Source of the DNA: Squalus acanthias
Lineage: Eukaryota
Length of the DNA stretch: 64,000 bases
Reading direction: 5' to 3'
NCBI GenBank assembly: GCA_030390025.1
Contig: CM059431.1
Coordinates: forward strand, 127,412,001-127,476,000
Below, piece by piece: positions 9,414 through 57,350 of this stretch. The notes beneath the pieces are model-generated. The model saw nothing but the letters and a program-made list of their open reading frames with translations. It searched no databases and was not told where the DNA came from. The position numbers and the translations under genes are program-made. Every line of letters starts with the position of its first letter. Within the stretch, counting starts at the first letter, position 1.

Positions 9414-10566
9414 TGGATGCCACTTATCCTGCCTTAGATTGGACCTCAGATCGGGACCAAGATGACTAGCAACAGCACCAGCAACAGCAACAGCAGCAGC
9501 TGCCTCTTGCTCACAGACCTGTAGCTCCACAGGAGAGAGGGGAGCAGCAGAGAGGTGCAGCTCGCAGGAGGCTATACTCGGCACACAGGGTCATCAGGCA
9601 GAGGATAAGCTTCCTTGACATGGCTGAACACTAGTGTCTCAGGAGGCACAGGTGGTGCCAGATATTTGCAGCCTGCTGGAACAAGACCTACTGCCAGATG
9701 GACTTGGTGGCCAGGCTTTACCAGTGGCTGTAAAATTCACCACCGCCCTCAACTTCTTTGCCTCTGGATCCTTCCAGGGCTCTGCTGACATTTGCAGGAT
9801 CTCCCAGTCGGCTGCACACAAATGCATAAGGCAGGTGATTGATTGCTTGTTTGCAAGTGCCATCAACTATGTGAACTTCGCCTGCCATGATGCCAGTCAG
9901 AATGAGTGGGCACTCGGATTTGCGGCTCTGGCTGGCTTCCCACAGGTTCAGGCATCATCGACTGCACACATGTGGCAATTAAGGCACCCATAGATCATCT
10001 AGGAGTGTTCGTCAATCGCAAGGGCTTCCTCTCCATCAATATGCTTGCGGTGTGCAGGTGTGCGCAAGATTCCTAGGCAACTGCCATGATACTTTAGTCC
10101 TTTGGCAGTCCACCCTCCCTGATCTCTTCGCACCTCGAAGCAGGGATACTCACTTAAAACATGGCTGATGACGCCTCTCAGAAACCCGAGGAATGAGGCC
10201 CAGAAACGCTACAATGAATGACTTTTGACCACCAGATGTGTGATCAGAAAAACCATCGTCATGATGAGGATGCCTTTCAGGTGCCTGGACAGATCTGGAG
10301 GTGCCCTACAGTACCTACCAGCCAGGGTCTCCAGAATGGTCATGGTGTGCTGCGCTCTGCACAACGTTGCCCAGCAGCGAGGTTTGGACCTGCAGGAGGA
10401 CCAAGGTGCAGAGCACAGAGCGTCTTCGTAGGATTCTGAGGAGGAGGAAGACGAGGAGGAGGAGGATGACGAGGAGGCAAAAGGTGATGAGTGCACTGCA
10501 CCACCAGCGGTGCACATTGCTGCCCGGGATGCCTGAAATGCCCTCATTATCGTGAGGTTCAATTAG
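9414..10566 (+). pseudogene. Harbinger DDE transposase pseudogene
   Basis: Fragments ALPVAVKFTTALNFFASGSFQ, AGFPQVQ, FRCLDRSGGALQY, VCCALHNVA and an acidic tail, in different frames with stops and deletions. Confidence 0.88.
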
Positions 10567-10859
10567 GTTCCACCAGTGCACCCATCTCACAACCTCATAC
10601 AAAAGTCACTTTTGCCTCCGCCCCCCCCAATGCCACTAACGCAAAGCAGTTCTGCAAACAACCAAGCATCCCTTTTACAACCCCTCATTGATTGCCGTCA
10701 ATTCAGATCTTCCCAATCATCATCAAACAACTGAAAAGGCCACTTGCTAACCAGCAATCCAGGGTGAGCAACACGGGAAAGTGGAACAAAACAATAATAT
10801 TCATGAGCATCAAATGAAGAAATTACACTGTACAAAATGTGTAACACACCCATGTGCAA

Positions 10860-12673
10860 CTACAAATATTTACTCTTTCTTTTCCTATTGCTTCTACATG
10901 GTGCAACCCCTGTGGCTTCAGCAGAGATAGAGGCAGGCTGCTCAGATCCCTGCTCTGACTGTTGAGCTGCTCTGGGCCAACGTCCTCTGGGTTTTGGAGC
11001 CCCTGAGGGCCCCACCAAAGGCTGCTCCACCTGCACCTGTGCAAGGGCAGACTCGGCCATAGGGACACAAGGCTGCATGTCAGGTACTGATTGAAGGGCG
11101 GTACAATGGGTGAGAAGTGGAAGCGCTTTGAGCCGGGTACCCACTTCCATGTTCCCTTTCACCATCATCTCTCTCATGGCCCAGCCTCACTTCCCTGCTA
11201 CCGCTGTGCTGCAGAACACTTTGCTGCAAATCAGTGTGATGCTGAAAGGCCAAGGTGAGGGAATCATTCATCCTATTTACGGTGACATCCAGAGTGGCAA
11301 GCCCTTGTTGAAGGCCTGCACGGTCTCGTGTGACTGCCGCGTTTGATGCTCCATGCAGTTGGCTCTCTATCCATGGAAGAAGACATCATTGCAATGGCCT
11401 GTGACAGCATCCCACTCATGCTTGAGGCGGACTTCTCCAATCTCTCTGCAATCGGGGACAGTGTGCTTGGAATGCCTGTCAGTACATCGCACAATCTCTG
11501 CTGCTGCTCAATGATTATCCTCTTCATCAACAACCCCCAGGATACAGCCTCTCCCCGTCCAGCTGAGCAGAGCTTGGAGCATCCTACACCCTCCGACTGC
11601 TGTCCTTGACTCCACCATCTACTCTTGCTCACTTGTGAAGTGCGAGTCACCAGGTGAAAACCCAACTCTCTCTGTAACTGGTCCCACTGAAGTACGAGTA
11701 TCTGAGCTGGTGCATGGTCTGCATGAGTCCTGTGACAGTACATCCTCAGAGAGATTGAGCTGCTCTGAGGAGGTGGTGGCAGCAGCGGTGACCTCAACCA
11801 ACTCTTGCTGGACACATGAAAGCCCTGTGGAAGATAAACAACATAAACTGTCAAGGTAAGAATGATTGAAGTTATCATTATGAACATGCTCATATTTCAC
11901 TGGTTGCTGACATCAAGTCAACATGACTGAATGTTGTATGCCTTGTGGCTGTCTGCTATTTGATTCTGTCACCAGGTAGCTCGGGTGCCCTCATCTCCCC
12001 CTCTCCAATGGCTAGGCTCACCGAGACTCCGCTGATCTACAGTGCCTCCTCCTCTGCAGCTGTTAGTTGCGAGATGGCTGGAGGGCCGACTACGGTGCTC
12101 TGCCTCTTCCTGGTGTTCTAAGCTCTCTTCTTCTGCAAGGAGGGAAAGAAAAGACCTATTAGTGAGAGTAATGGCAAGTGTTCACCCGATGGATGGAGAG
12201 CATTTGTTGAGGCTGACGATGAGGGAGAGGCATGACATTGCATAAGGATGAGTGTGAGAGTCAGTGGTGGGTGGATAGATGGGGATGTGACAAAGTGCAT
12301 AGACAGAGAGGGATGGGTGCACCTGCAAGGTAAGTTGGTGTGAGGAGTGATGTGCTGGAATTGGCTTCAGAAGGCAGAGAGGGTTGGGGTGATATACACA
12401 TCAGGATGTAGGTGAATGTGCCACTGCTCTCATCTTTCCTGCCCTGGTTAGGTCATTAAACCACTTCTTGCATTGGATCCAGGAGCGTGGCACTACGCTC
12501 CTGCTGCTGACCTCTTGTGCCACCTTCAACCACGCTTTCTTGATTTCCCCAGCAGGCTTCTTCCTCCCGTTGCTAAGGAAGAGTATCTCGGTCCAGGTTC
12601 TCACAGCCCCCAGCAGCACATCCAGGGAGGCGTCCATGAAGCGAGGCACAGCCTTTGACCAGCTACCTTCCAT
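10860..12673 (-). pseudogene. Harbinger Myb/SANT DNA-binding gene remnant (spliced)
   Basis: Exon 1 PRFMDASLDVLL...AWLKVAQEVSS...PRSWIQCKKWFNDL; basic C-terminus RSNRKRKSK; disablements. Confidence 0.85.
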
Positions 12674-15265: not shown

Positions 15266-17862
15266 GGGCTGGTTTTGCCAGCGCTCAGAGGGCAGGTTTG
15301 GAGGCGGGTCCACTGTCAAAATAGCAAAGATTGACAGCGGGTAGGAAACCCGCCTCCACGCGAGTTTCCCAGGTGTTGGGTCTGTCAGCGGAGAACTGAC
15401 CCGAAACCAAGCGGCAGGGGAGACAATTTAGATCATTAAATGGCTTGTTAACAGTCAATTTAATGCTATTTTGATGCTACCTTGCAATTTTACATCCTCC
15501 CCCATGGGTTACCCACTGCTCGGGGAACACGCCAGCTCACCCTGTCATGAGTTGAGTCTGCTTTGATGTATCTGATAAGCTCACAGCTGCAGAAGTGGTA
15601 TAAAGGATACCATGTTGCGGATGTTCAGTTTCAGAGCTCAAACTGTTGGTTACTGCATTTGTAAGACATATAGGGGGAGAAAATCTGTATCGCCCCGTTT
15701 GGGGTGCGATTATCGGCCGGGCGCAAAGTTTAGCGCCTGGCGCTAATTATCGCCTCCGACTGCAAACTTGGCTTTTATCGCCCCTGGAGGTGATTGGAGC
15801 GCTAAATCAGGCGCTGCACACCTGTCTTAAGACGCAAAGGCTGAGGAGCGAGGCGCTAACTCAGAGCGCGGGTGCAGCGCAGGTGATGTCAGTTTGCGAT
15901 GGAACACAGACACCGGACAGTTCTTAAAGGGGAGGGTTGATCTTGCTCTCCATCCACACCCTGCTCATTGCAGCCTTGAATCTCAGCCTAGAGAGACCTG
16001 TACATCAAATCTGTTGGAATGAACAATGGAGAGGCCCAGGGAAAGAGCTCAGAGTGCAGCCCCCCAAGTCTCTTCTAAATCAATGCAAGGAAGATCAAAT
16101 CAAAAAGAGCCTGCAAAGTGCTGCTCTGTACCGAAAACTCCTCAACACAGCTTTGAATATTTCCTGCAGTCTCTCTCTCTCACTCAGAATGCGTGCTGCA
16201 AAAGTTTTGCCGACCAAAAAAAGTCAGGAAGCGGTCGTCTTTAAATAGCGCTCCCCCAGTCCCTTCCTGACTGCAAAACGCTCCCCTCAACCTGTCGTTG
16301 CTAGCGGCAGGCGGTAAGACAGGGGGCGCCACTCAATATCCGGTCCGGGGCACTACAGGGGCTTTGCACGCTCGACTGGCGTCACGATCTGCGGGCGCAG
16401 GAGATCGTGGCGGTAGTGTTTGGTGCCGCCACAAAATGTCTAGTCAATTTCGTGAACAGCGCAAACATCACCGCGCATGGGCGCTAGTTGCTTTGCGCCC
16501 CATTAGCGCCCTCTTAAGGCGCTAACGGGAGGCGCAAACAAACCGAATTTTTCCCCCATAGAGATTTATTTAGCTTGCAAGTGTTTAGAGCCAACAGTAT
16601 AATTAGTGCCACCTCATTGGAACAACCTCTATCACCAGTGACAGATCAGTTCTGTCATCTTACCTGCAGCTGCCATCTAATGCAGCAACATTGCTGCCCT
16701 TGGAAAAATCAGACCTTGGTCCTCTGAATCCTTCCACGATCAGCCCCAACACCAACATCACCAACAACATGAACAACCTTCTCCGCCATCACATGATGCT
16801 GCACAGGACACAGGACATCAGCCTCTGCCAACATTGCTGCCCGGGAGGCCAGCGATGGCATCACCATGGCCAAATTTACTTCACTTGATGCTGTAAACCT
16901 TGGCTGCCACATGATGCGCCAGGTTGGCACAATCCCACACCAGCACCGTGAAGCATCCCTTTAATTTCCAAGCCATTCCATGCACACACATCACTATAGC
17001 GGGGGTGGGGGGGAGTTATGTCTCAACATTCACTGGAACTCAGGAAGACACTTCTCAAGGTGCGCACAGATCTGTCCAATAAGGTGAAGTGTTGAAAATA
17101 TGGATTTCACTGTATGACAACACATTACCAGAAACTTCACATGAACATTGGCTAAACCTTTCAAGTGCCTACCCTTGTGTCTTGTTAGTTTGTCTGCTTG
17201 CTGTATGATGAGGGTAATTGTGAGGGGTGGCTAGTGAGATGGGGAAGTGATAATCTAGATAGAAAGGGATGGGTGGAGGTGCAAGGTAAGTTGGTGTGAG
17301 TAAGGATGTGCAGGAGTAGGGTATGGAAGGCAGAGTGATGGGGATGCAATGAGTGCACAGCAGGATGAACTTTGCAGTAACGTTTTGTGATCTACTGAGA
17401 TCATTCAAAGGTTGGCGCCACTACTGTGCAATGTGCAACCAGACTGCGTTGATCTCCTGGGGAGGTCTCTTCCGCCCATGGGAAGAGAAGAGAATCTCCC
17501 TGCGTGCCGTGACTCCCTCCATAAGCATATGGAGGGAGTCATGCGTGAGCCTGGGTGAAGATGTGCACCTCTGTGCAGTGCTTGTCAGTGTTTTCGGCAC
17601 CTCAATGCTGTAGAACACTGACAGCACAACTGTCAAAATAAATGTGGCTGTGGTCCCTTTAAGGAACTGACTGATGACACGTTATCAAATGACGCCGACA
17701 GACCCACTTCCTGTTAATTGACCAGGAACCCTGCAGGGCGGGCTTAACAAGGCCAATCTACGGAAAATCATTTTCAGAGAGTGGCTGCAGACGGGAGCGG
17801 GACCGGAACCCGCTATCCAGCACTCCCGCCGTCATCCCACCTCCGCAGGGAAAATCCAGCCC
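15266..17862. mobile_element. Internally deleted Harbinger retaining Myb exon 1 (minus); split by a MITE
   Basis: TIRs GGGCTGGTTTT / GGGCTGGATTTT (rc), flanks TAA/TGA; ORF 17421-17636 PRLTHDSLHMLMEGVTARREILF..GRKRPPQ; colinear with 53633-55349. Confidence 0.8.
15673..16557 (-). mobile_element. Harbinger MITE of the 21106 family, copy 1
   Basis: TIRs GGGGGAGAAAAT / GGGGGAAAAATT; ATA on both flanks; ends homologous to 21106-25308; empty site visible in paralog near 54040-54060. Confidence 0.93.
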
Positions 17863-20502: not shown

Positions 20503-20900
20503 ACTTGAGAGGAGATTTGATAGAGGTGTTCAAAATCATGAGGGGTCTAGACAGAGTAGAGAGAGAGAAACTGTTCCCATTAGCGGAAGGGTCGAGAACC
20601 AGAGGACGCAGATTTAAGGTGATTGGCAAAAGAACCAAAGGCGACCTGAGGAAAAACTTTTTTACGCAGCGAGTGGTTAGGATCTGGAATGCACTGCCTG
20701 AGAGGGTGGTGGAGGCAGACTCAATCGTAGCTTTCAAAAAGGGAGTTGGATAAGTACCTAAAGGAAAAAAATTTGCAGGGCTACGGGGAAAGGGCGGGGG
20801 ATTGGGAGTAGCTGAAGTGCTCTTGCAGAGACCCGGCACGGGCTCGATGGGCCGAATGGCCTCCTTCTGTGCTGTAACCATTCTATGATATGATTCTATG
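20503..20900 (+). mobile_element. CR1 LINE 3' end (5'-truncated)
   Basis: LRGDLIEVFKIMRG...RTRG..FK...FFTQRVV..WNALP; ATTCTATG tail. Confidence 0.92.
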
Positions 20901-21277
20901 GTACAGCAACTTCAGGCGAGTGGTAAATGCATGTTTAAATGTCAACGTCCGAGTTGCGCCGATCCGCCATTAGCTTTGCGAAAACAGCATCTCGCTGTCT
21001 GCCTCACCATTGAAATGCATTGAATGGTGTGAAGTTGCTGTATTTACGCAGTAGATATGAACTAAGCCCACCACAGAAAGTTAAGTCTTGTCATTTGAAG
21101 TGTAAGGGGTAAAAATTCAGTTGGTTGCGCCTCCCGTTAGCGCCTTAAGAGGGCGCTAATGGGGCGCAAAGCCGCTAACGCCCGGGTGCAGCGATGTTTG
21201 CGCCGCTCGAGAACTTAACTAGAGATTGTGCGGCGGCGCTAAAACTTACCGCTGCGACCACCTGCGCGCGCAGATTA

Positions 21278-21426
21278 TGACGTCATTCCATGGTGCAACG
21301 CCCTTGTGGCGCCCCGGAGCGGAAATTGAGTGGCGCCCCCTGCCGTACCCCCTGGCGCTTCCAACGACCGGAAGACTGGAACGCTATCAATCGCTGTGGG
21401 GCTGGGGGGGGGCGCTATTTAAAGGG
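21278..21426 (+). promoter_or_regulatory. Putative transposase promoter (CRE-like TGACGTCA and TATA-like TATTTAAA)
   Basis: TGACGTCA 21278-21285; TATTTAAAGGG from 21416, ~200 bp upstream of the ATG; TATA-like box retained in the MITEs. Confidence 0.45.
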
Positions 21427-21617
21427 GGCCTCTTCCTGACTTTTTCTGTGGTCGACATTTATGCACCACTGGTTCTGAGAGAGAGAGAGAGATTCGGAGA
21501 GAGAGAGAGAGAGACTTCTACATTGACTCAACGCTTTGTGAGGTAGTTTTGCCTATTCATCCTAACTTTGTTGCTACTTTAGTTGCTGTCCCTCATTACT
21601 TTTCTTGCAAAGAGAAT

Positions 21618-22778
21618 ATGGGGGCTGCACTGATTGGGGGCGTCGTCCTGCTCCAGCTGAATCGGAGGATACAGAGACGCAGAGACAGAGTGGCAATGAT
21701 GGCCAGACGGAGGAGGGCCATCAGGCGCATGTACAGGAGAGCTTACCCTCCCAGGGTATATCGTGAACAGCTCTCCTACATCCATATGTCCGAGGAGCTG
21801 TGTTTGCGAAGGCTGCGATTCAGCAAGGAGGTGGTCACTGAGCTCTGCCACCTGCTGCAGCCAGATCTGCAGCCTCAACTGAGGTCCAGGACGTCTCTGT
21901 CGGTGGCAGTGAAGGTCACAGTGGCTTTGACCTTCTACGCCACTGGCTCATTCCAAGTTGCTGTTGGGGACCTCGCCAATATCTCCCAGTTCGCGGTGCA
22001 TCGCTGCAACCGGCAGGTCACAAATGCCCTCTTCAGAAGGAGACGAGAGTTCATCTCTTTCCCTATGACCCCAGACAAGCAGCGTGACCGCGCTCTGGGC
22101 TTTGCGAGGGTAGCGGGCTTCCCCATGGTGCAGGGCGCCATTGACTGCACGCATGTGGCTTTGCATGCTCCGCGTGAGAATGCAGAGGAATTCAGGAACA
22201 GAAAGGGGTTCCATTCCTTGAATGTCCAGTTGGTCTGTGACCACAGACAGCTGATACTTGCTGTCAATGCCCACTATCCTGGCAGCTGCCACGATGCTTT
22301 TATCCTGCGCCAGACTACTGTGGCAGAACTTTTCGAGGCACCGCATCAGCCAGTTGGTTGGCTTCTCGGGGACAAGGGGTATGCATTGAGCACCTGGCTG
22401 ATGACACCGCTCCGTACGCCAAACACCCCTGCTGAGCTGCGGTACAATGAAAGCCATCAAGCAACCAGGAACATTATTGAGCGCACAATCGGCGTGCTGA
22501 AACAACGGTTCCGCTGTCTGGACCATTCCGGAGGAGTCCTGCAGTACTCGCCTGAGCAAGTATCGAACTTCGTAGTCGTGTGCTGCATGTTGCACAACAT
22601 GGCAATCCTCAGGACCCAGCCAATGCCACCAGGCCTTGTAGCACCACCAGAGGAGGAGGAGGAAGAGGAGGAAGAGGACGAGGACGATGATCATCAGCAG
22701 CACCAAGGCGGGAGGGCGGCCCACAATGGCCAAACTGCAAGGGCCGTCCGTCAACGGCTAATAGCAAGCCGCTTCTAG
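21618..22778 (+). CDS. PIF/Harbinger DDE transposase (HARBI1-like family), 386 aa, uninterrupted
   Basis: ATG at 21618 within ORF 21549-22778; motifs GAIDCTH, NRKGFHSLNVQLVCD, PGSCHDA, LLGDKGY, RNIIERTIGVLKQRFRCL, CCMLHN; acidic tail. Confidence 0.95.
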   Translation: MGAALIGGVVLLQLNRRIQRRRDRVAMMARRRRAIRRMYRRAYPPRVYREQLSYIHMSEELCLRRLRFSKEVVTELCHLLQPDLQPQLRSRTSLSVAVKVTVALTFYATGSFQVAVGDLANISQFAVHRCNRQVTNALFRRRREFISFPMTPDKQRDRALGFARVAGFPMVQGAIDCTHVALHAPRENAEEFRNRKGFHSLNVQLVCDHRQLILAVNAHYPGSCHDAFILRQTTVAELFEAPHQPVGWLLGDKGYALSTWLMTPLRTPNTPAELRYNESHQATRNIIERTIGVLKQRFRCLDHSGGVLQYSPEQVSNFVVVCCMLHNMAILRTQPMPPGLVAPPEEEEEEEEEDEDDDHQQHQGGRAAHNGQTARAVRQRLIASRF

Positions 22779-23072
22779 GGCCCCTGCCATTGCTACCAAC
22801 ATTAATCAACCCAGCACGCAACCCCTAAGCCGGCCAAGGCACCAATAATTCCAACCGCCAGCCATGTATATTTTGAATACAGAAACTTATTTATTTTACA
22901 AACTCTGTGTGTGTCAATTCCTCATGACAAACTCATAGAAATAAACACAAAAAAACAGTCAATAACATAACTGGTTCTCACAACCTGGAGATAATGTCCA
23001 AAACACTAAACAAAAGTTGGACCATGAACCTCGGCCTTTAATAAAAAAATGACCAGCATTTTGTCTCACCTC

Positions 23073-24950
23073 CTACTTTTTGCCCTTCGAGGGTGATCTC
23101 CTTCCCTTGCGCACTTCCCCCCTTCTAACCCTACTGCTCCTCCATAATGGGACCTCAGTGGCTGCAGCAAGGCTGGTGGAAGGCTGCTGCTCGTCAGACC
23201 CTGACACTGCAGATGCCCCTCAAGGACGGCCTCGACCACTTCTGGGCCTGGAGGGCCCGGCTGCAGACTGCACCAACTCTGCATGGGTGGCAGCAGTCTG
23301 TCCTACAGGCGGTGGCAAGTGCAGTGGAGAAGTGACAGTGTTGGCAGCAGGAATGCTGTCATCGTGAGAGAGGACATCAACTCCCTGCTCGCCCGACACA
23401 CTGGCACTCCCACGGGGCAGCACTTCAGCATCCAGAGCAATCTGCCGGAGAACAGATTGCTGGCCTGCTGCGGCGCGGTGACAGCCCCGGGGACATGTGC
23501 ACGAACCATCGAGGTTGGCAGCAGTTTGTGCTCACGTGGCCTCAATCTGAGTCTGTATGAGAGCAGTCAGAGATGGGATCACGGCAGCCAGTGACTGAAT
23601 TGCAGCACTAAGCGTTAGTGTGGCATCCGCCTGTGCTACAGCAAAGTGCTCCACACTCCTTGCCAGTGACTCAATGCATTCGGGCACCCTTCCCACTGCA
23701 CCCATGAGCTCAGTGTGCATGCCCACCGCCTGGGTGTTCATATCTGCAATCAGCCGCTCCTCCTCTGCGTCCATTGCAGTAGGAGTGTCTGGCATACTCT
23801 CCCTCTTGGGGAGAAGGCCCCCGTTCTTCCCTACCCCCCCCCCATGGCGTTGCTGCAGCCCGCTGGGTCCTGGAGCTTCACCCTCATCAGCCCCTTCCCC
23901 CCTGCTCCCCTCCGGGGAAGGCGTGTTCCCAGTGTGGGCATGGGCTTCCTCGGGAGAGGGTGGCACTGATGCTCTGGCTTCCTCTTCCTCCTCAGCTGCA
24001 GCATCACTCCCAGTGGCAGCTTCAGGGCCCGTCTCCTCAGCTGGTGAATCACCATCTGAAAGCAGGGAGGTACAAGAGTGGCTTTAGCGTGAGGACAGGG
24101 TGGCAGTAAGGGAGGAATAAGTGCAGCGAGTTAGCAAGTTGGATTGAAAGTGTCAAAGGCTGGTGTTGTGAGGGACAAGTGGAAGGACAGAGGACAAAAA
24201 GGTGATGACCTTACCATTGCTGTCCAGAACGGGGTCGGCGTCTCCAGTGGCGACGGGACCGATCACCCGGCTTGCCACAATCCTGTGGACGCGCTCCTCC
24301 AGATCGCTGAGGGGTTGCAGCTGAGGCCGCCCTCCACCTGTCCGTTGCTGCTGTCTCCTATTATGAGCCAGCTTAGCCTGCAAGAAAAAGGACAGCATCT
24401 GAGTAAATATACAGCCATGGTCTTGCCTGATGTGCCTCCCATAGGTGAATAGCCCTTACTGTATGCAGCCATGGTCTTGCCTGATGTGCCTCCCATAGGT
24501 GAATAGCCCTTACTGTATGCAGCCATGGTCTTGCCTGATGTGCCTCCCATAGGTGAATAGTCCTTACTGTATGCAAAGTGTGGAATGTGTGTGTGTGTTT
24601 GATGAAAGGGCCATAGGTGTTGCATGAGTGTTGTGCATTGGGGTTTCAAGACCCTCTGGCCATAGAGTGAGGTTGAGATGGAGGGATGGAGAGGTATTGA
24701 GAAAAAGCCACTCACCCTGACGACCCGAGTGAGGTCGTTGAACTTTTTGCGGCATTGAGTATGGGTCCTGGGCACCATGCTGCTGGAGGAGACGCTCTGA
24801 GCCACCTCCCTCCACACTCTTCTGAACTCGCGTGGCAAAGGCCTCCTGCCACTCAGGGAACAGCATACATCGTCTGCGCTCCACTGCGCCAACCAGAGCA
24901 TCCAAGGCCCGCTCGGTGAAGCGATGAGCGCGTTCTCTCACCCTCTCCAT
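23073..24950 (-). pseudogene. Harbinger Myb/SANT (trihelix) gene, 3 exons (24950-24716, 24377-24215, 24055-23073) with one frameshift and two premature TGA
   Basis: MERVRERAHRFTERALDALV..., WREVAQSVSS..PRTHTQCRKKFNDL; GT-AG introns in consistent phases 0 and 1; 1-nt deletion ~24858; TGA at 23532 and 23220 in frame; basic tail RRGEVRKGRRSPSKGKK. Confidence 0.88.
24412..24573. repeat. 54-bp tandem triplication in Myb intron 1
   Basis: CAGCCATGGTCTTGCCTGATGTGCCTCCCATAGGTGAATAGCCCTTACTGTATG x3, one mismatch. Confidence 0.95.
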
Positions 24951-25974
24951 GCTTGGCAGCAAAATGGATTCACAGGTCTCTCCAGGCTGAGATTCAAGGC
25001 TGCAATGAGCAGGGTGTGGCTGGGGAGCAAGTGGCCCCCCCCGCTTTAAGAAGTGGCCGGCGCCAGTGTGTCTGTGTTCCCTCGCTAACTGGCAGCAGCT
25101 GCGCTGCGCTCGCGTGCTGAGTTAGCACCTCACTCCTTGGCCTTAGCGCCTTAAGACAGGTGTGCTGCGCCTGATTTAGCGCTCCACTCACCTCCCGGGG
25201 CGGTAAAAGTGAAGTTTCCAGTCAGTGCCGATAATTAGCACCAGGCGCTAATATTTGCGTCCAGACGATATTTGCGCCCCAAATGGGGCGCGACCTAATT
25301 TCTACCCCTAAGTATCCTTTTAACGCCATGATAAGTGTTAATTACTGCCAATCAACCTCTCTGGCACTGAAAATTAACTATTACAAGTGTGGAGTCTCAA
25401 TCCTTCAGTTATTAATTATTGTTGGGAGATTTGAAAATTGTCAAATATAATTTTATTTTTTTTACTTTCCTTTCTGTGTCTTTTTTCTCACTGGTGACTT
25501 GTGACCTCAGAAACAAGATCCTCTGTCAAGTATTCAGATTGGTGCGCGGCTGAAAAGTTCTAACATAAACTACTCGCACCACATCACTGACTGCTTCCTT
25601 GTGCAATGTTTTCTGGGACATATAACCTACTTGCAGTTACCTTGTGCTCTGCTACTGTGTTATAAACTTTTTGGTTTATTTCAAATTTGGAACTTCATGA
25701 AGATCCTTTGCAACTTCTATATATTTCTCAAAGGGCTCCAAAATGTGCCTACATTTTTACACCAATATGTCCCAATGAATACAACATTTAGCCACTGTTT
25801 CTTTGACTGCAGTGAGGTGGATTTACATAAACATTAATGTTTTGAGGTTGTATAGTTTAATATTAAAATGCTTTAGATAATATCCCCTCAGTAACAGTCA
25901 CAGCTCAATTATTTATTCCCAACAACCAGTTTTGCAAACATCCACAACACCAGAACAAAGTGTGTGGAAATAAA

Positions 25975-26866
25975 GGGGGAGAAATTCAGTATCGCCCCAT
26001 TTGGGGCGCAATTATCGGCCGGGCGCAAAGATTAGCGCCTGGCGCTTATTATCGCCACCGACTGCAAACTTGACTTTTATCGCCCCTGGAGGTGATTGCA
26101 GCACTAAATCAGGCGCTTCACACCTGTCTTAAGGTGCAAAGGCCGAGGAGCGAGGCGCTACCTCAGAGCGCTGGCGAAGCTCATGTAATGTCAGTCAGCA
26201 ATGGAACACACACACAATGGCACGGGCCAGTTCTTAAAGGGGATGGTTAATCTTGCTTTCCATCCACATCCTGCTCATTGCAGCCTTGAATCTCGGCCTG
26301 GAGAGACCTGCACATCAAATGTGCTGGAAAGAACAATGGAGAGTACCAGGCAAAGAGCTCAGAGTGCAGCCCCCACATTCTCTGCTAACTCGATACAAGG
26401 AATGGCAAATCAAAATGAACCTGCAAAGTGCTGCTCAGTACCCAAAACTCCTTCACACAGCGTTGAATCTCTCCAGACGTCTCTCCCTCTCTCTCTCAGA
26501 ATGCGTAGTTCAAAAATGGCACCAACAATAAAAGGCAGGAAGCGGTCACCTTTAAATAGCGCTCCCCTTTCCCTTCATAACTGCAGAACGCTCCCCTCAA
26601 CCTGTTGTTGCTCGCGTCAGGCGGTAAGGCAGGGGGCGCCACTCAATATCCGCTCTGGGGCGATACCGGGGCGTTGCGCACTCGACTGACGTCATGATCT
26701 GCCGGCGCAGGAGATCGTGGCGGTAGTGTTTAGCGCCGCCGCAAAATGTCTAGTTAATTTCGCGAGCGGCGCAAACTTCGCCGCGCCTGGGCGCTAGATG
26801 CTTTGCGCCCCATTAGCGCCCTCTTAAGGCGCTAACGGGAGGCGCAACCAACTGACTTTTTCCCCC
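25975..26866 (-). mobile_element. Harbinger MITE of the 21106 family, copy 2
   Basis: TIRs GGGGGAGAAATT / GGGGGAAAAAGT; flanks AAA/TAA; colinear with copy 1. Confidence 0.92.
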
Positions 26867-29656: not shown

Positions 29657-31222
29657 CCTTCCGCTTCCCCCTCGTCCGCTTCCTCCTCTTCCGCTTCCTC
29701 CTCTTCCGCTTCTTCCTCTTCCGCTTCCTCCTCTTCCGCTCCTTCCTCTTCCGCTTCCCCCTCGACCGCTTCCTCCTCTTCCGCTTCCTCCTCTTCCGCC
29801 TCCCCCTCTTCCGCTTCCTCCTCTCCCGCTTCCTCCTCTTCCGCTTCCTCCTCTTCCGCCTCCTCCTCTTCCGCTTCCCCCTCTTCTGCTTCCCCCTCTC
29901 CCGCTTCCTCCTCTTCCGCCTCCTCCTCTACCGCTTCCTCCTCTTCCGCTTCCCCCTCTTCCGCTTCCCCCTCTCCCGCTTCCTCCTCTACCGCTTCCTC
30001 CTCTACCGCTTCCTCCTCTTCCGCTTCCTCCTCTTCCGCCTCCTCCTCTTCCGCCTCCTCCTCTACCGCTTCCTGCTCTTCCGCTTCCTCCTCTTCCGCT
30101 TCCTCCTCTTCCGCTTCCTCCTCTTCCGCTTCCTCCTCTTCCGCTTCTTCCTCTACCGCTTCCTCCTCTTCCGCTTCCTCCTCTTCCGCTTCCTCCTCTT
30201 CCTCCTCTTCCGCTTCCTCCTCTTCCGCTTCCTCCTCTTCCGCTTCCCCCTCTTCCGCTTCCTCCTCTTCCGCTTCCTCCTCTTCCTCCTCTTCTGCTTC
30301 CTCCTCTACCGCTTCCTCCTCTTCCGCTTCCTCCTCTTCCGCCTCCTCCTCTTCCGCCTCCTCCTCTACCGCTTCCTGCTCTTCCGCTTCCTCCTCTTCC
30401 TCTTCCTCCTCTTCCGCTTCCTCCTCTTCCGCTTCCTCCTCTTCCGCTTCTTCCTCTACCGCTTCCTCCTCTTCCGCTTCCTCCTCTTCCGCTTCCTCCT
30501 CTTCCTCCTCTGCCGCTTCCTCCTCTTCCGCTTCCCCCTCTTCCGCTTCCTCCTCTTCCGCTTCCTCCTCTTCCTCCTCTTCCGCTTCCCCCTCTTCCGC
30601 TTCCTCCTCTTCCACTTCCTCCTCTTCCGCTTCCTCCTCTTCCGCTTCCTCCTCTTCCGCTTCTTCCTCTACCGCTTCCTCCTCTTCCGCCTCCTCCTCT
30701 TCCGCCTCCTCCTCTTCCGCCTCCTCCTCTACCGCTTCCTGCTCTTCCGCTTCCTCCTCTTCCGCTTCCTCCTCTTCCTCCTCTTCCGCTTCCTCCTCTA
30801 CCGCTTCCTCCTCTTCCGCCTCCTCCTCTTCCGCCTCCTCCTCTACAGCTTCCTGCTCTTCCTCTTCCTCCTCTTCCGCTTCTTCCTCTACCGCTTCCTC
30901 CTCTTCCGCTTGCTCCTCTTCCGCCTCCTCCTCTTCCGCCTCCTCCTCTACCGCTTCCTCCTCTTCCGCCTCCTCCTCTACCGCTTCCTCCTCTTCCGCT
31001 TCCTCCTCTTCCGCCTCCTCCTCTTCCGCCTCCTCCTCTCCGCTTCCTCCTCTTCCGCTTCCTCCTCTTCCGCCTCCTCCTCTTCCGCCTCCTCCTCTTC
31101 CGCTTCCCCCTCTTCCGCTTCCCCCTCTTCCGCTTCCCCCTCTTCCGCTTCCCCCTCTTCCGCTTCTTCCTCTTCCGCTTCCCCCTCTACCGCTTCCTTC
31201 TCTTCTGTTTCTTCTTCTTCCT
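29657..31222. repeat. ~1.55-kb 15-bp minisatellite (TTCCGCTTCCTCCTC)n
   Basis: About 100 units with variants; polypyrimidine/polypurine; reads EEEAE on minus. Confidence 0.97.
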
Positions 31223-37994: not shown

Positions 37995-40315
37995 GGCCTA
38001 GAAATTCCCAGTTGTTTTGAAAAATTCCCAGTTAAGGTTTTGAAAAAATGGCAACTGCCTCGTTTCCATCCGCCTCCGGCACGGGACACGGCAGCCGTCA
38101 TTTTGGTGAGTGTCATAGCGCTGCCGTTGCCAGCGTTGGCCTCTCAACTTAAATGAGCAGATCGTGATGTCAATCAGATTGCCTGATTTGACACCACGAC
38201 TGATATTTTGGACGTCGCTGCACACCACAACGCCCTGTCCTAAATACGCACAAAAAAACGTGCATGAAGCAGCCCTGCAGAGACGTTGTCGGTGCTTCTT
38301 AAAGGGACACACACATCTTTCAGGTAAGTTCAGATTTTGGACTTTTTAAAATATTTTATTGAAGTAGTGCCTTGTGCAATACATTTATAAAGTTGTTAAT
38401 GTGTGCAGAGAGTGCTGCTGGATGCTTGCAAGGCATTGGTTGGTAAAAGAAGGCCTCTGAGAAGACAGAAAATCTGGAAATACTCAGCAGGTCAGGCAAC
38501 ATCTGTGGAGAAAGAAACAGAGTGAACGTTTCAGGTCGAGATGCTGCCTGACCTTCTGAGTATTTCCAGATTTTCTGCTTTTATTTCAGATTTCCAGCAT
38601 CCGCAGTATTTTGCCTCTGAGAAGAGCACTTGCTCACAGTGCTGGGGGGGCACATGGAGCTGAAGCAGAGGCAGCAAAGGGGACAAGCTGTTCGCAGAGA
38701 GAAGAGAAAGAAGCAGAATAGGAAGATGCAGAAGAGGAGGAAGCGGAAGGAAGGATGCAACCCAGACAGCCCCTTTCTGGCCAGGATATCCGAGATGGAA
38801 TCATCCGCCTGTGGTACCAATGACCACAAGCCCAATTCCTCTTTCAACATTAGTCCCACACCTTACCTTCCCTCTGTTACTGACCATCACAGCATCCTCT
38901 TGGCCACAATGCTGAAATAAAAGCCACCACAAAGCAAACTTTCCAATCCAACTTTATCCATATATGCATCCAATATGACATCAAGAAATAAACTAATCAC
39001 CCTTCTGCATTCCCTTAGTGACTGTCTTGTGCGTGCCTTTGCCTATCCTACTGATGTCTCGCAGTGCTACCCCAGTGGCTGCAGCATGGCTGGTGGAAGG
39101 CTGCTGACTTTCAGTGGGGGACACTGCAAATGGCCTTGCAAGATGACCTCGAGGAGCTGGTGGCTGGGAGTGTCAAATCGAGTGACGGTGTTTCTTCTTC
39201 TTCTTCTTCTTCTACCACCACTGCTACCGCCACCACCACCAGAAATGAGGAAGTCACAGGGGCAGGGTTGTGATGAGGGGAGGCCAGAAAGCAAGAGCTG
39301 CATGCTTACACCATGCGCAGTTTGTACATCAGAAGCGATTGTGGGATGAGGTGAAAGTGGAATGTGAGAAGGAGGATACGTATCAGGATACCAGCATCTT
39401 GTATTCTTTCAGCCCTGCTGCTGGCCAAGGACTCAGCCATGCCCCTGCCAAGAATGGCCAGCACTATTTCCCCTAAGGGGGGATGGCAAAGCAAGGAATG
39501 GGAGGTGTGCCTTGTGTTTATGTTGGTAGGTGAATGATGGGTTGGTGTGTGGCGGGGGGAGGTCGTGCATTGAGCAGTGTGTGAGGCTAGTCGTGCAGTT
39601 GGTAGGAGACAGCTTTTGAAGATGCATTCACTGACCCTGAACACTGGTCTGAGGTCATGAAACTTCTTTGGGCACTGGAGCTAGGTCCTGAGGGCAACAC
39701 TGGTGGCAGTGACGGTTTTGGTGATCTAGTCCCACATCCTTCTTTCTGGAGGGCCTCCTGGCCTCCTGTGGGTAAAGGATCTCTCTTGCAGTGTTAACTC
39801 CCTACACAAAACTGGAGTGCTGCGTGCAGAGCCCTGGGTCCCTTTCCCTGGCTTGTTGAGCCATTTGTGTTAGCACCTTTACCATTTTTTTAGGTGCAGA
39901 AGGCAATTCAGCTTTAAGTGCTGAAGACTGCCATTTTGGAGTTATTTTTAATGCTTTTTTCAGAAGGCAGTTGAGCTCTAAAGGCTAAAGACTGCCTATT
40001 TTTAAATGATTTTTACTTTTATTTATTTTAGAAGGCAGTTCCCCTTTCAGGGCTCGAGACTGCTTTCTAAAATGCAGCCTAGCTTTAAGAAAATGCTGCC
40101 TTGCTCCAGGGACGCTATGGCCATGCTACATTGGACCTCCTGCTGAGCTCACCGCCTGAAACAACACGTTGCACGATAGGTACTGTGCTCCAATCATTGA
40201 AATCAGCAGGCAGCACCAAAATAATGGTGCTGTCTGCGCTCTTTTTTTCAGGCACGAGTTAATCTCGCCCCGCAATGGCATCGCCCGTTTTCCCACATTA
40301 TTGGATTTCAAGACC
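37995..40315 (+). mobile_element. Internally deleted Harbinger (transposase tail on +, Myb remnants on -)
   Basis: TIRs GGCCTAGAAATTC / GGTCTTGAAATCC (rc); interior homologous to 28008-31850. Confidence 0.75.
38466..38612. mobile_element. Palindromic MER6-like/Penelope-like insertion with 13-bp TSD
   Basis: GCCTCTGAGAAGA at 38453-38465 and 38613-38625 flanks an inverted-repeat insert. Confidence 0.75.
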
Positions 40316-40472: not shown

Positions 40473-41369
40473 GGGGGGAAAATTCAGTTGATTTGCGCCT
40501 CCCGTTCGCGCCTTAAGAGGGCGTTAATGGGGCGCAAAGCAACTAGCGCCCGGGCGCGGTGATATCTGCGCCTCTCGCAAAATTGACCAGACATTTTGCG
40601 GCGGCGCTAAACACTACCGCCACGATCTCCTGCGCTGGCAGATCGTGACATCAGTCGAGTGCGCAACGCCCCGGTCGCGCCCCGGAGCGGATATTGAGTG
40701 GCGCCCCCTGCCATACCGCCTGCCGTTAGCAACGACAGGTTGAGGGGAGCGTTTTGCAGTCAGGAAGGGACTGGAGGAGCGCTATTTAAAGGCGAACACT
40801 TCCTGCCTTTTTTTGTTGGTGACATTTTTGCACCACGCATTCTGAGAGAAAGAGAGAGAGAGAGACTTCTGGAGAGATTCAACGCTGTGTGAAGGAGTTC
40901 TGGATACTGAGCAGCACTTTGCAGGTTCATGTTGATTTGCCCTTCCTTGTATCTATTTAGAAGAGACTGTGGGGGCTGCACTCTGAGCTCTTTCCCTGTT
41001 TCTCGCCATTGTTCTTTCCAGCAGATTTGATGTACAGATCTCTCCAGGCCGAGATTCAAGGCTGCAATGCGCAGGATGTGGATGGAGAGCAAGATCAACC
41101 CTTCCCTTTAAGGACTGGCCGGCGCCATTGTGTCTGTGTTCCATTGCTGACTGACATCACATGAGCTTCGCCAGCGCTCTGAGGTAGCGCCTCACTCCTC
41201 GGCCTTTGCGCCTTAAGACAGGTGTGTAGCACTGATTTAGCGCTCCAATCACCTCCAGGGGCGATAAAAGCCAAGTTTGCAGTCGGAGGCGATAATTAGC
41301 GCCAGGCGCTAAACGTTGCACCCGGCCGATAATTGCGCCCCAAACGGGGCGATACTAAATTTTTCCCCC
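40473..41369 (+). mobile_element. Harbinger MITE of the 21106 family, copy 3
   Basis: TIRs GGGGGGAAAATT / GGGGGAAAAATT; flanks TTT/TTA. Confidence 0.92.
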
Positions 41370-41884: not shown

Positions 41885-44800
41885 TACTGCATGCATGCTA
41901 AAAAGCGGAAGCAGCATGCTATCGACAGAGCTCAGCGATCCCACAATCAACGGATCAGATCAAAGCTCTGCAGTCATAGAGTCATAACGGCACAGAAGGA
42001 GGCCATTCGGCCCATCGAGTCCGTGCCAGCTCTCTGTGGAGCAATCCAGTCAGTCCCATTCCCCCGCTCTATCCCCGTAGCTCTGCAAGTTTATTTCCCT
42101 CAAGTGCCTATCCAGTCTCCCCTTGAAAACATTGAGTGTCTCCGCTTCCACCACTTCCGTCGGCAGCGAATTTCAGGTCATTACCACTCGCTGCGTAAAA
42201 ATGTTCTTCCTCACATCCCCCCTGTATCTCTTGCCCAAAACCTTAAATCTGTGTCCCCTAGTCCTTGTACCATCAACTAGTGGGAACAGCCTTTCCCCGT
42301 CTAGCCTATCCAAACCCATCATAATCTTGTACACCTCCATCAAATCAATCCTCAACCACCTTTGCTCTAATGAAAACAAATCCAGCTTCTCCAACCTGTC
42401 CTTGTAGCTAAAATCCCCCATCCCCGGAACCATTCTGGTAAATCTCCTCTGTACCCTCTCAAGGGCCTTCACATCCTTCCTAAAGTGTGAAGACCAGAAC
42501 TGGACACAATACTCCAGTTGTGGCCTAACCAGCACTTTATAAAGGTTCAGCATAAGTTCTCTACTTTTGTACTCAATACCTCTATTTATGAAGCCCAAGA
42601 TCTCATATGCTTTGTTAACCACTCTCTGAATATGTCCTGTCACCTTCAGGGACCTATGCACATTAACTCCCAGGTCCCTCTGTCCCTGCACACTCTTTAA
42701 AACTGTGCCATTAAGTGTATATTGCCTCTCCCTGTTCCTTCTGCCAAAATGCATCACCTCACACTTCTCTGTATTAAATTCCATCTGCCACTTGTCTGCC
42801 CATTCTGCTAGCCTTTCTATGTCCTGTTGCAGTCGATTGGTATCATCATCACTGTTTGCCACACCCCCAAGTTTGGTGTCATTGGCAAATTTAGAAATTC
42901 TACTCTGTATTCCAATATCCAGGTCATTTATATATATCAAAAAAAGCAGTGGCCCCAGCACTGACCCTTGGGGAACACCACTGTCTATACCATCCTCCAG
43001 TCTGAAAAACAGCCATTTACCACAACTCGCTGTTTTCTGTCCTTAAGCCAATTCCTTATCCAAGCTGCCACTGACCCACCTATTCCATGAGCCTCAATTT
43101 TGTTAACCAGCCTTCTATGTGGTACTTTGTCAAACGCCTTCTGAAAATCCATGTAGACAACATCCATTGCATTCCCTTCATCAATCCTCTCTGTTACTTC
43201 ATCAAAAAATTCAATTAGATTAGTCAAACATGATCTGCCTTTTACAAATGAGTGTTGGCTCTCCTTAATTAGCTTAAACCTCTCTAAGTGCCCATTATTT
43301 TTTACCTTGATTATTGTTTCTAAAACTTTACCCACCACTGATGTTAAACTCACCAGCCTGCAGTTACCAGGATTGTCCTTACACCCTTTCTTGAACAATG
43401 GTTTCACATTTGCCACTTTCCAATCCTCAGGCACCTCCCCCGCATCTAGGGAAGATTGGATAATTATGGAAAGTCCTTCCGCTATCTCCTCCCGCAATTC
43501 CCTTAGCAACATGGGATGCAAACCATCTGGACCAAGCGACTTGTCCACTCTAAGCATACCCAGCCTTTCTAGTACATCCTGTCTATCAATTTCCACCCCT
43601 TCCATTGCTTCTGCCTTTTCTACTTCTACCGATATTTTGTCAGCATCCACCTCCTTAGTAAACACCGATACAAAGTACTCATTGAGTATTCTAGCCTTGC
43701 CCTGCGCCTCTAAGCATATATCACCTTCTTTGTCTCTAATAGGCCCCACCCCGCCTCTTACTACCCGCTTACTGTTTACATGCCAGTAGAAGATTTTTGG
43801 GTTCCTTTTTATATTAACCGCCATTCTACTCTCATATTCTCTCTACCACATCTAGTCATGAATGGTGGAGGACCATTAAACAACTAACGGGAGGAGGAGG
43901 CTCCATGAATATCCCCATCCTCAAAGATGGTGGAGCTCAGCACGTGAGGGCAAAAGACAAAACTGAAGCATTTGCCACCATCTTCAGCCAGAAGGTCCGA
44001 GTGGATGATCCATATCAGCCTCCTCCTGAGGTCCCCACCATCACACAAGCCAGTCTTCAGCGAATTCGATTCACTCCACGTGTTATCAAGAAACGGCTGA
44101 GCGCACTGGATACAGCAAAGGCTATGGGCCCAGACAACATCCCGGCTGTCGTGCTGGATTCTTGTGCTCCAGAACTAGCCATGCCTCTAGCCAAGCTGTT
44201 CTAGTACAGCTACAACACTGGCATCTATCCGACAATGTGGAAAACTGCCCAGGTATATCCTGTCCACAAAAAGCAGAACATATCCAATCCGGCCAATTAC
44301 AGCCCCATCAGTCAACTCTCAATCATCAACAAAGTGATGGAAGGTGTCATCGACAGTGCTATCAAACAGCACTTACTCACCAATAACCTGCTCACTGATG
44401 CCCAGTTTGGGTTCCACCAGGACCACTCAGCTCCAGACCTCATTACAGCCTTGCTCCAAACATGGACAAAAGAGTTGAATTCCAGAGGTGAGGTGAGAGT
44501 GACTGCCCTTGACATCAAGGCAGCATTTGACCGAGTGTGCCATTAAGGAGCCCTAGTAAAACTGAAGACTTCTTTGGCAGCACCTCCCAAACCCAAGACC
44601 TCTACCACCTAGAAGTACAAGGGCAGCAGGCGTATGGGAACACCACCACCTCCAAGTTCCCCTCCAAGTCAAACACCATCTTGACTTGGAAGTATATCGC
44701 CATTCCTTCATCGTCGCTGGGTCAAAATCCTAGAAGTCCCTCCCTAACAGCATTGTGGGAGTACCTTCACCTCACGGACTGCAGCGGTTCAAGAAGGCAG

Positions 44801-47789: not shown

Positions 47790-49502
47790 TTGTGCATTAT
47801 CTTCCTCTTATGCATGCTCCTACGTGGTGCTTCCCCTGTGGCTTCAGCAGATGTGGAGGCCCCTTGCTCACTTTCTTGCTGCTCTTGTCTCGACACCTTT
47901 GGCGGGTGTCCTCTGGGGTTGCGAGCCTGTTAGGGCTCGGCAACAGTCTGCTGCTCCTGCGGCTGTGCAGGGGTTGAGACGCCGATCTCAGTTGGGTGGG
48001 GACTTTGGTGGGACTCTGACCGAGGGCTCTGCAGTGGCATGGTCGTGTGAGCGCTTGGAAAGGAGCCCCCACTTCCTTGTTGTCTGCCACAAACATCCCT
48101 CTCATGGGTCAGCCCCACTTCAGAGCTAGCAAGTGGCTGGACAGCACTTTGCTGCACTGCAGGGGGGCCATGAGGACCCGTTTCTGCACTGGAAGTCCTA
48201 CTCCAGAGGACTTTCATGAAGGTCTGGTTTGTTTGCTCAATAGCTGACCATCGCTCCTCAAGAGATGTCAGTCTATTCTGAACAATTGCCATGTTTTCCA
48301 TACCCTGGCGACTAAGCTCCTCCGTGGACGTAGCCATCCTTTCCTCTACCGTAGCCATCCTCTCCTCTACGGTAGCCAGCCTTACCATGGAGGTAGCCAT
48401 CCTTTCCTCTACCTATGTCCACCATCTGCTGATGCTCACTTGTGAGCTGTGATACACCAGGTGACAAGACTACTCTATCTCGCGAAGGTCCCACCGAGGT
48501 GTGAGTGTCTGCGCTGGTGCTGGGTGCTCTGAATTCTGCTGACGCTGCGCCATCAGAGGTTGCAGCTTCCTCTGAGGAGTCTGGAAGCTCAGGCTCTTCC
48601 TCCTGGACAGTGGGGATGGGGGCTCTCGATGGTCCTGTGGGGGAGTAAAGGAAAGAGTTAGAAATGTGAGGTCAAGGTTACATGAACATTGAAAAGTGCA
48701 GATGATCATAAGTCAATCTGTTAGAGCATCAGATTCATTATCAGTGACTCATGCAATGTCAATGAGAGAGATGCCAAACTCTTCTGTCACCAGCTTGCTG
48801 CGATGCGCCCATCTGTCCGTCCCCCACTTGGGAATCCTCCTCGATTCTGGTGATCTCCAGGGCTGCCTCCTCCCAGGGGGTGAGCTGGGCTACTGAGGGT
48901 GGCCCTCCTCTGGCCATGGCTCTTTCTCTCTTATTGTGGGCTCTCTTTTCCTGCAATGAGGGACACAAGTGGAGATTGAATGAGAATGAAGGATTGAATG
49001 CAGAGAATCCATTGCATAGATGCTTAGAGGGATACAAAGGACCCTCCCTGTGTGCTGAAAGTTGTTGTTGTCATGGCATCACAGTGATAGGGAGTGTGAG
49101 GGCTGCATGGTCGAATAGTTAAGTGAATGTGACCTTAGAGAGAGAGGGAGTGGGTAAGGGTGCAGGCATGTAAGTGTCAAGTGGAATGTGGAGGAAGAGG
49201 CTGGCAAAGCAGAGTGCTGGTGAGGACTGGCGATGGGGATCAGATTGAGGGTGATGGGAAAGTCATACTCACTTTTCCTGTTCGGAGAAGATCATGAAAC
49301 CTCTTCCTGTACTGCAGCCAGCTTCTGCAGCTCAGCGAGATGGAGCTGACCTCCTGGGCCACACAGCTTTTGTCTGCTGGGGTGGCTTTTTTCTCCCTGA
49401 GGAAGGGAACAGCACCTCCTTCCTGGATCTCGCTCCCTCCACCAGAGCTTGGAGGGAGGGCTCATCGAAGCGTGGAGCACACTTTGGCCTACTGCTGGAC
49501 AT
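47790..49502 (-). pseudogene. Myb/SANT gene remnant, 3 exons (starts 49502, 48950, 48634)
   Basis: APRFDEPSLQALVEGARSRKEVLFP..GRKKPP; EKRAHNKRER...GGPP...LTPWEEAALEI; coiled-coil-like segment in ORF 47930-48400. Confidence 0.8.
48330..48413. repeat. 21-bp coding-phase tandem repeat (heptad MATVEER)
   Basis: GTAGCCATCCTTTCCTCTACC x4, third copy degenerate. Confidence 0.85.
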
Positions 49503-55992: not shown

Positions 55993-57350
55993 GTCAGCCT
56001 TGGCTTAGTAGTAGCAGTCTCACCTCTGAGTCCATAGGTTGTGGATTCAAGCCCCACTCCAGAGACTTGAGCAGGTAATCTAGGCTGCCGCTTGTGTGTA
56101 GTACTGAGGGAGTGTTGCAGTGTCAGAGGTACCGTCTTTTGGATGAGACATTGAACCGGGGACCCATGTGCCCGCTCAGGTGGACATAAAAGATCCCACG
56201 GCACTAGTCGAAGAAGAGCAGAGGATTTTTCCTGGTGTCCTTGCTAACAGTTATCCCTCAACCAACACCTAAAACAGATGTGGGGGAAAAATTCAGTTGG
56301 TTTGCGCCTCCCATTAGCGCCTTAAGAGGGCGCTAATGGGGCACAAAGCAACTAGCGCCCGGGCGCGACGATGTTTGCACCTCTCGCGAAATTGTCCAGA
56401 CATTTTGCGGCAGCGCTAAACACTCCCGCCACGATCTCCTGCGCCCGCTGATCGTGACGTCTGTCGAGCGTGCAACGCCCCGGTAGCGCCCCAGACCGGA
56501 TACTGAGTGGCGCCCCCTGCCTTACCGCCCGCCGCTAGCAACGACAGGTTGAGGGGAGCATTTTGCAGTCGGGAAGGGACTGGGAGAGCGCTATTTAAAG
56601 GCAACTGCTTCCTGCCTTTTTTGGTCGGCGACATTTTTGCACCACACATTCTGAGTGAGAGAGAGAGACTTCTGGAGATATTCAACGCTGTGTTGAGGAG
56701 TTTTGGGTACTGAGCAGCACTTTGCTGGTTCATTTTGATTTGATCTCCCTTGCATCGATTTAGAAGAGACTGTGGGGGTTGCACTCTGAGCTCTTTCCCT
56801 GGGTCTCTCCATTGTTCTTTCCAGCAGATTTGATGTACAGGTCTCTCCAGGCCGAGATTCAAGGCTGCAATGAGCAGGGTGTGGATGGAAAGCAAGATCG
56901 ACCCTCCCCTTTAAGAACTGGCTGGCGCCAGTGTGTCTGTGTTCCATTGCTGACTGACATCACATGAGCTTCGCCAGCGCTCTGAGGTAACGCCTCGCTC
57001 CTCGGCGTTAGCGCCTTAAGAGAGGTGTGTAGCGCCTGATTTAGCGCTCCAATCACCTCCAGGGGCGATAGAAGCCAAGTTTGCAGTCAGAGGCGATAAT
57101 TAGCGCCAGGCGCTAAACTTTGCGCCCGGCCGATAATTGCGCCCCAAACAGGGCGATACCGAATTTCTCCCCCATGATCTTTATTAATTTCATTGCTGTT
57201 TGTGGGACCTTGCTGTGGGCAAATTGGCTGCCACGTTTCCTACAGTATATTAGTGACTACACTTCATAAGTACTTAATTGGCTGTAAAGCACTTTGGGAC
57301 ATCCTGAGGTCATGAAAGGCACTATATAAGTGCAAGATCTTTCTTCTTTC
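55993..57350 (+). mobile_element. DeuSINE split by MITE copy 4
   Basis: 5' part 55993-56281 and 3' part 57174-57350 join to give a full copy like 5113-5560. Confidence 0.85.
56282..57173 (+). mobile_element. Harbinger MITE of the 21106 family, copy 4
   Basis: TIRs GGGGGAAAAATT / GGGGGAGAAATT; TSD ambiguous (ATGT left, ATG right). Confidence 0.92.

Follow-up and report, generated by a model that had tools for sequence, protein, structure and literature searches.

A full-length two-gene PIF/Harbinger transposon whose transposase frame is open and whose Myb gene is broken, probably left by past amplification of a high-copy elasmobranch family

Does a transposon that looks almost intact belong to a family that moved recently, or is it what remains of an older amplification? 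The question is raised by a 4,203-bp element at 21106..25308 of a 64,000-nucleotide (nt) stretch of Squalus acanthias contig CM059431.1 (the window), in which a transposase gene on the plus strand and a Myb/SANT gene on the minus strand converge. A first-pass annotation had described the element as three edits away from a complete autonomous Harbinger transposon. Our answer is that the locus is a full-length two-gene PIF/Harbinger copy with an open transposase and a broken Myb gene, likely elasmobranch, and likely left by past amplification of a high-copy family; we put the probability of this reading at about 85%.

The element is bounded by target-site duplications (TSDs) of TAA at 21103..21105 and 25309..25311, and both gene domains were matched, in agreement with the earlier assignment to a two-gene PIF/Harbinger with a TAA TSD. 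Terminal inverted repeats (TIRs) of 12 bp were also found at both ends, at 21106..21117 (plus strand) and 25297..25308 (minus strand); they start with GGGG and match at 11 of 12 bases. When window starts were scanned at length 4203 for an inverted match of at least 11/12 with an identical 3-mer flank, 1 of 59,791 qualified, and that one was this element. In the accessible text of Han et al. 2015 (PMC4482050), the PIF/Harbinger group of the PHIS superfamily has a TWA duplication, a short TIR starting with G, two open reading frames (ORFs) and an average length of about 4.1 kb. The 4,203-bp element has the features by which membership is judged there, namely a TWA duplication, a TIR shorter than 60 bp starting with A or G, a DDE ORF and a Myb/SANT ORF. 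A helix-turn-helix (HTH) is also expected; the modelled transposase N-terminus is helical (H59-H140), and a Pfam search gave no HTH match there. NuwaI elements have a CWG duplication, whereas this element has TAA, though a TIR starting with GGG, as here, is typical of NuwaI too according to the same text. The insertion site reads G-TAA-G, compared to C-TNA-G for NuwaII; the 3' G fits and the 5' C does not, in this one copy. Domesticated genes of the HARBI1, NAIF1 or MSANTD type are single copy and immobile, in contrast to this locus with its TIRs, TSD and very high read depth. Finally, elements are called potentially active in PMC4482050 if they have two intact ORFs, while the copy studied here has a Myb frameshift, two stops and a compensating pair of insertions or deletions (indels).

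The transposase ORF (21618..22778, plus strand) is open for 386 amino acids (aa) and matches PF13359 (DDE_Tnp_4) with E=2.3e-39, which bears out the earlier description of an uninterrupted transposase with a D/D/E triad. The catalytic residues are D176 (22143), D252 (22371) and E288 (22479), within the motifs GAIDCTH, GDKGY and IIERT. Each is the majority residue among the homologs covering its column (98/117, 94/114 and 77/116, respectively), and all three are kept in 53 of the 108 homologs that cover all three columns. An AlphaFold model built on a 65-sequence alignment, used instead of a single-sequence fold with a predicted local distance difference test score (pLDDT) of 37, has a pLDDT of 90.2 and places D176 in a strand, D252 just past a strand and E288 in a helix. 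This modelled layout appears close to that of the PHIS transposases as given in the accessible text of PMC4482050. A sequence search for a relative of solved structure found none, and Foldseek against the PDB gave no match at E<=0.001; the weak top rows were DDE transposases and integrases, and also Spt6. When residues 30-340 of the transposase were paired with a helical Myb piece of 86 aa in a complex prediction, the score was 0.01, but no alignment was used and the outcome says nothing either way. Upstream of the gene, a TATA-like box at 21416..21423 (plus strand) is a putative promoter and is retained in 4 of 4 of the short deleted elements described below. A 70-nt intron in the 5' untranslated region is predicted at 21543..21612 (plus strand) from signals only: a GT donor, a CTAAC branch-like site at 21562, a pyrimidine tract and AG. 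It ends shortly before the transposase ATG, and its GT donor is missing at the aligned place in all four short elements. Between the two genes, convergent polyadenylation-like signals occupy 22890..22945 on both strands (AATAAA at 22890, minus, and at 22940, plus), and the 3' ends of the genes are predicted to overlap.

The exons and introns of the Myb/SANT partner, on the minus strand, are also predictions. Exon 1 (24716..24950, 235 nt) carries the Myb/SANT-like domain and is followed by intron 1 (24378..24715, 338 nt, phase 0), exon 2 (24215..24377, 163 nt), intron 2 (24056..24214, 159 nt, phase 1) and exon 3 (23073..24055, 983 coding nt), which encodes a basic C-terminal tail and ends with TAG at 23075-23073. 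Both introns are GT..AG, and the three in-phase exons proposed earlier were confirmed. A 49-aa Myb piece past the frame break in exon 1 scores 24.8 bits against PF13873 (cut-off 21.7) and 27.0 bits against PF13837 (cut-off 27). One protein was matched in the Myb-domain search, and no homolog of exon 3 was found among 8,000 scored candidates.

The lesions of this copy were read against other copies by aligning public runs, three from three studies, to 20900-25600: X1 (DNA, which may have been what the assembly was made from), X11 (same organism, RNA by guess) and X8 (DNA, other organism label). The search for runs that contain the sequence listed none of RNA, and a raw RNA run, X21 (about 10 million reads), had 0 reads placed and counts as no test. 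The Myb frame is broken behind 24851, a few bases away from the C run (about 24858) in which the first-pass annotation had seen the loss of 1 nt. Because exon 1 is 235 nt, i.e., 3n+1, its frame is restored by +2 or -1, and adding one base leaves it broken. Further, one X11 contig and one X8 contig insert two letters behind 24851, and related Myb domains, both from the database and from relics within the window, have two residues between LFP and GRRP. Judged by these comparisons, exon 1 has lost 2 nt behind 24851. Of the two premature TGA codons, which had been ascribed to decay of CGA, the one at 23532..23534 (minus strand) is indeed CGA in 95% of X1 depth and in 100% of X11 and X8 depth, the change at 23534 being CpG decay. 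The other, at 23220..23222 (minus strand), is TCA in at least 99.9% of depth at position 23221, and so is a transversion and not a case of CpG decay. In addition, there is a compensating insertion pair at 23806..23838 (minus strand), 1 nt at 23806 and 5 nt at 23834, which shifts about ten codons. The extra base at 23806 is missing from 95% of X1 depth and from X11 and X8, and those contigs of X11 and X8 which reach across 23834 are without the five extra bases there. Without its five lesions the Myb frame has 459 codons; spliced as predicted, the product of this copy is 79 aa and goes out of frame before the Myb domain ends. The three lesions listed earlier were therefore not the full list, as there are five frame-level lesions and at least five residue changes in the transposase. 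Formally, the Myb frame could be reopened by three edits of suitable size, but the ancestral element needs more. The lesions look private or rare, and both genes seem to be open in the majority form. Copies in the three runs neither all share the Myb lesions nor are all highly diverged, and the majority of copies lack the lesions, so a consensus can be reconstructed, as had been proposed. In Myb intron 1, 24408-24575 consists of 3.1 copies of a 54-bp repeat, and each unit has, on its coding strand, a donor-like GTAAG. Contigs of X11 and X8 both begin within this array, at 24546, which suggests that the family form also contains it.

Homopolymer and dinucleotide repeats are prone to read errors. 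A 9-C run is the site of the 5-nt insertion, and the 2-nt loss falls within a short dinucleotide repeat; the copy might then be nearly intact in the animal, with its breaks due to slips in sequencing or assembly. Plain base changes speak otherwise: inside the element, X1 has another letter in at least 90% of its depth at 20 of the 38 substitution rows listed, and these comprise the two stops together with 18 or more other substitutions, 7 of the 20 being of the CpG-decay type. With 208 further substitution rows beyond those 38, the counts of private changes are lower bounds. Moreover, one X1 record aligns to the right flank over 220 letters with 0 differences, which speaks against an assembly that is error-prone in general at this place. 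We consider sequencing error a very unlikely account of the breaks.

The closest proteins to the transposase are elasmobranch "HARBI1-like" predictions, with a best local identity of 65%. Among them are three Pristiophorus japonicus proteins, P0001, P0002 and P0003 (local identity 65%, 60% and 65%), which differ from this transposase in that they belong to other families (identity of about 61-64% across the aligned length), no longer have the third catalytic residue, and are annotated as genes ("putative nuclease HARBI1") rather than described as transposon families. Another such protein, P0007, has a Myb domain as well, with 48% identity across 109 aa. In a quick tree that used 47 of the 121 rows, picked by hand (the query itself, the 30 best hits and 16 others), the transposase groups with the Pristiophorus copies inside an elasmobranch clade, with a Shimodaira-Hasegawa-like approximate likelihood ratio test (SH-aLRT) support of 94. 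This kinship, as far as protein sequences can tell, fits a long vertical presence. The same comparison contains short-branch clusters of proteins from distant sharks and rays, P0024/P0025/P0061 (89% identical), P0039/P0040 (89%) and P0004/P0005 (84%), several of whose members have lost catalytic residues. We regard these clusters as candidate domesticated Harbinger transposase genes of elasmobranchs.

Elasmobranchs thus appear to hold several conserved transposase-derived genes, with pairs 84-89% identical between distant species, and the transposase studied here is open and has all three catalytic residues, which only about half of the homologs covering these columns keep. Might the host be keeping this transposase, in an early stage of domestication, while the Myb gene decays? 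Against this, the TIRs and the TSD are still present at the locus, its family is a high-copy one, and the transposase itself has private changes. At least six sites in the gene differ in at least 90% of X1 depth, and among those listed five are missense (21686, 21931, 21958, 22009 and 22537) and one, 22259, is silent. The residues changed are 23, 105, 114, 131 and 307, two of them at conserved columns: T105, where homologs have N in 85/110 and T in 3, and N131, where homologs have I in 92/113 and N in 1. Residues 105 and 131 both lie in confidently modelled N-terminal helices; the two changes might affect function. The private missense pattern looks like neutral decay, and we give almost no credence to early domestication.

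We return to the preferred reading, a decayed copy from a past amplification. X1 gave 37,851 records on 20900-25600, with a summed depth of 2e5-1.9e6 across the element compared to 59 in the last right-flank bin. Compared with long dominant pieces, the copy has another letter at 31 of 2,333 in X8 (all 8 listed pieces) and at 28 of 1,483 in X11 (the 5 of 8 pieces with depth >50), and its divergence from the majority form is 0.5-1.9%. Of 35 rows shared by X11 and X8, 30 have the same alternative letter in both runs, and at 5 the two runs disagree. The left flank of the element is itself repetitive (X1 depth 36,384). Several records join both flanks without the element, with unidentified letters between, and no exact empty site was found among them; they are probably empty copies of a host repeat and not an empty allele. 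[quoted passage not shown] By run labels the family seemed to be shared between host species, six other organism codes holding 0.39-0.53 of its words. These labels were rejected as proof of sharing, as other samples (X22 and X23) under two of them hold next to none, and they were not used for dating or for horizontal transfer.

Several observations weigh against this account or blunt it. Summed depth is not a copy number, and the bound of about 470 or more copies that it gives is crude, an order of magnitude only. When three low-depth X11 pieces, about 10% diverged, are added, the X11 difference becomes 78/1,995, or 3.9%, and part of the 1.3-1.9% divergence is subfamily structure. X1 mostly sides with this copy at 24861-24885. 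In X1, 0 contigs (depth 2,376) show the 2-nt indel, whereas 3 show the 5-nt one (781/575,766 of depth), which we tentatively attribute to clipping of short records. The X11 piece 24546-25002 crosses the intron-1 donor unspliced, so Myb splicing stands as a prediction. Lastly, the majority form was read from short contigs, none of which spans the element, and its open frames are to that extent inferred.

The open majority form and the low divergence would also suit a family that is still active, in which intact near-identical copies elsewhere supply both proteins and move full-length and deleted elements. In keeping with this, 7,054 of the 37,851 X1 records are at least 99% identical to the copy, and naturally intact vertebrate Harbingers do exist, with 269 copies given for the sea krait Laticauda colubrina in the accessible text of PMC8437027. 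However, the mean length of the X1 records is about 54 letters (2,772 M in 51.4 M records), so identity of 99% or more tells little, and more of them, 14,883, lie at 90-95%. No intact two-gene copy was seen in X1, X11 or X8, where no single record spans the element, and all other Harbinger pieces in the window are more decayed than the 4,203-bp element. We therefore consider present activity unlikely. The earlier claim of recent activity has the low percent divergence on its side and nothing beyond that; the family itself is reconstructable. A time scale can be borrowed from the epaulette shark, with 7e-10 mutations per site per generation (95% confidence interval 1.4-14.1e-10) in the accessible text of PMC10587355. 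A divergence of 0.5% then corresponds to about 7 million generations and 1.3-1.9% to about 19-27 million, within a whole range of 3-136 million, figures that give scale only because the rate comes from another species and ignores the faster decay of CpG. From its divergence the 4,203-bp copy is old, likely millions of generations, which is compatible with younger copies elsewhere.

How would such an element have worked? Sinzelle et al. 2008 is reportedly the primary paper on the zebrafish elements Harbinger3_DR and Harbinger3N_DR. Harbinger3_DR was reconstructed from a consensus and is mobile in human cells only with both of its proteins (PMC2836001, PMC3016246, PMC9392472, accessible text, as for the systems below). 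The Myb protein binds the ends and imports the transposase through its N-terminal part (PMC9392472, PMC2836001), and the need for both proteins was shown for Harbinger3_DR and for Ping/Pong (PMC2836001). By analogy with these systems, a working element of the present family would have its subterminal DNA bound by the Myb protein, which would also carry the DDE transposase into the nucleus and to the element's ends; there the transposase would excise the element, to insert it at a TAA/TTA site. After insertion this copy would have decayed and its Myb gene been broken. Since its Myb product is 79 aa and out of frame before the end of the domain, the copy is unable to supply both proteins, and since its ends are intact it could still move in trans; it is presumably non-autonomous and movable only in that way.

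The deleted elements in the neighborhood bear on this point. Four MITEs, at 15673..16557 (885 bp, minus strand, flanking 3-mers ATA/ATA), 25975..26866 (892 bp, minus, AAA/TAA), 40473..41369 (897 bp, plus, TTT/TTA) and 56282..57173 (892 bp, plus, TGT/ATG), match both ends of the element and are without everything between the two start codons; a perfect 3-bp duplication is found in 1 of the 4. They had been proposed as the family's own substrates, which the identities do not support. The MITEs are 87-91% identical to each other, each 6-8% from the majority of the others, while their identity to the 4,203-bp element is 74-76% at the left end and 78-80% at the right end. Where all four agree, the element differs at 79 of 394 columns on the left and 53 of 325 on the right, i.e., 16-20% fixed differences. 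These comparisons indicate that the four MITEs derive from an older sister element and not from this family. Cross-mobilization of the sister MITEs by this family is nevertheless possible, by analogy, because the first ~65 bases of the left end are nearly identical between MITEs and element, and because Ping and Pong proteins cross-mobilize at 62-77% identity (PMC2836001). That the family has intact two-gene copies, is mobile today and cross-mobilizes the older sister MITEs is a larger proposal, and a doubtful one.

Among known systems, the element is like Harbinger3_DR in being a vertebrate two-gene Harbinger with a DDE transposase and a Myb-like partner. The Harbinger3_DR target is a palindrome with a CWG core, in contrast to TAA here, and the two are set apart by description only. 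Harbinger-Snek of sea kraits, horizontally acquired and intact in 269 copies in L. colubrina (PMC8437027), is likewise a high-copy Harbinger of marine vertebrates, with full-length, solo-ORF and short non-autonomous variants. The present family differs from Snek, with its horizontal origin and hundreds of intact copies, in that its nearest relatives are elasmobranch and that no intact copy was seen. For cartilaginous fish, the accessible text of PMC9179366 reports the elephant shark to be without Harbingers and urges that others be tested, and in that of PMC12498223 Tourist/Harbinger elements are the commonest DNA transposons of a reef shark genome, given only as a RepeatMasker class. We found no description of a full-length Harbinger family from sharks in the literature; repeat libraries of shark genomes, Dfam and Repbase may hold it.

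Harbinger remains are frequent in the window and differ in age. A second, decayed convergent pair lies within 9649-12643, consisting of a transposase relic at 9649-10371 (plus strand; 39% identical, with stops) and a Myb relic at 12643-12443 (minus strand); the ends of this pair were not found. Further Myb or transposase relics occur at 1-148, 17424-17552, 39630-39776, 49264-49478, 54896-55424 and 59743-59904, and 16558-17813 is 75% identical to 54049-55300. Apart from Harbingers, a 15-bp pyrimidine-rich tandem array of 106 copies at 29658-31221 is open for more than 500 codons in several frames, and its flanks are repeated at 38297-40033. Fragments of LINE-type reverse transcriptase (RVT_1) at 42176-43842 and 62483-63520 have motifs that we take to be CR1-like. 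A tRNA-Ile(AAT) call at 53003-53078, 77% similar to 61901-62000, is possibly the head of a tRNA-derived short interspersed element rather than a gene. No Rfam family was found within the 64-kb window.

In sum, the element is a new elasmobranch member of PIF/Harbinger, a group whose two-protein mechanism and reconstruction route are already established. It is also a caution, in that a copy seemingly three edits from intact holds further changes that are visible only through other copies. A two-gene anatomy from an elasmobranch fills the gap left by the elephant shark report, an incremental step, and provides a second reconstructable vertebrate Harbinger, with TAA rather than CWG as its target. 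Were the family mobile today, no working Harbinger of cartilaginous fish would have been described before it, and it would offer a ready protein pair for the first structure of a Harbinger transpososome.

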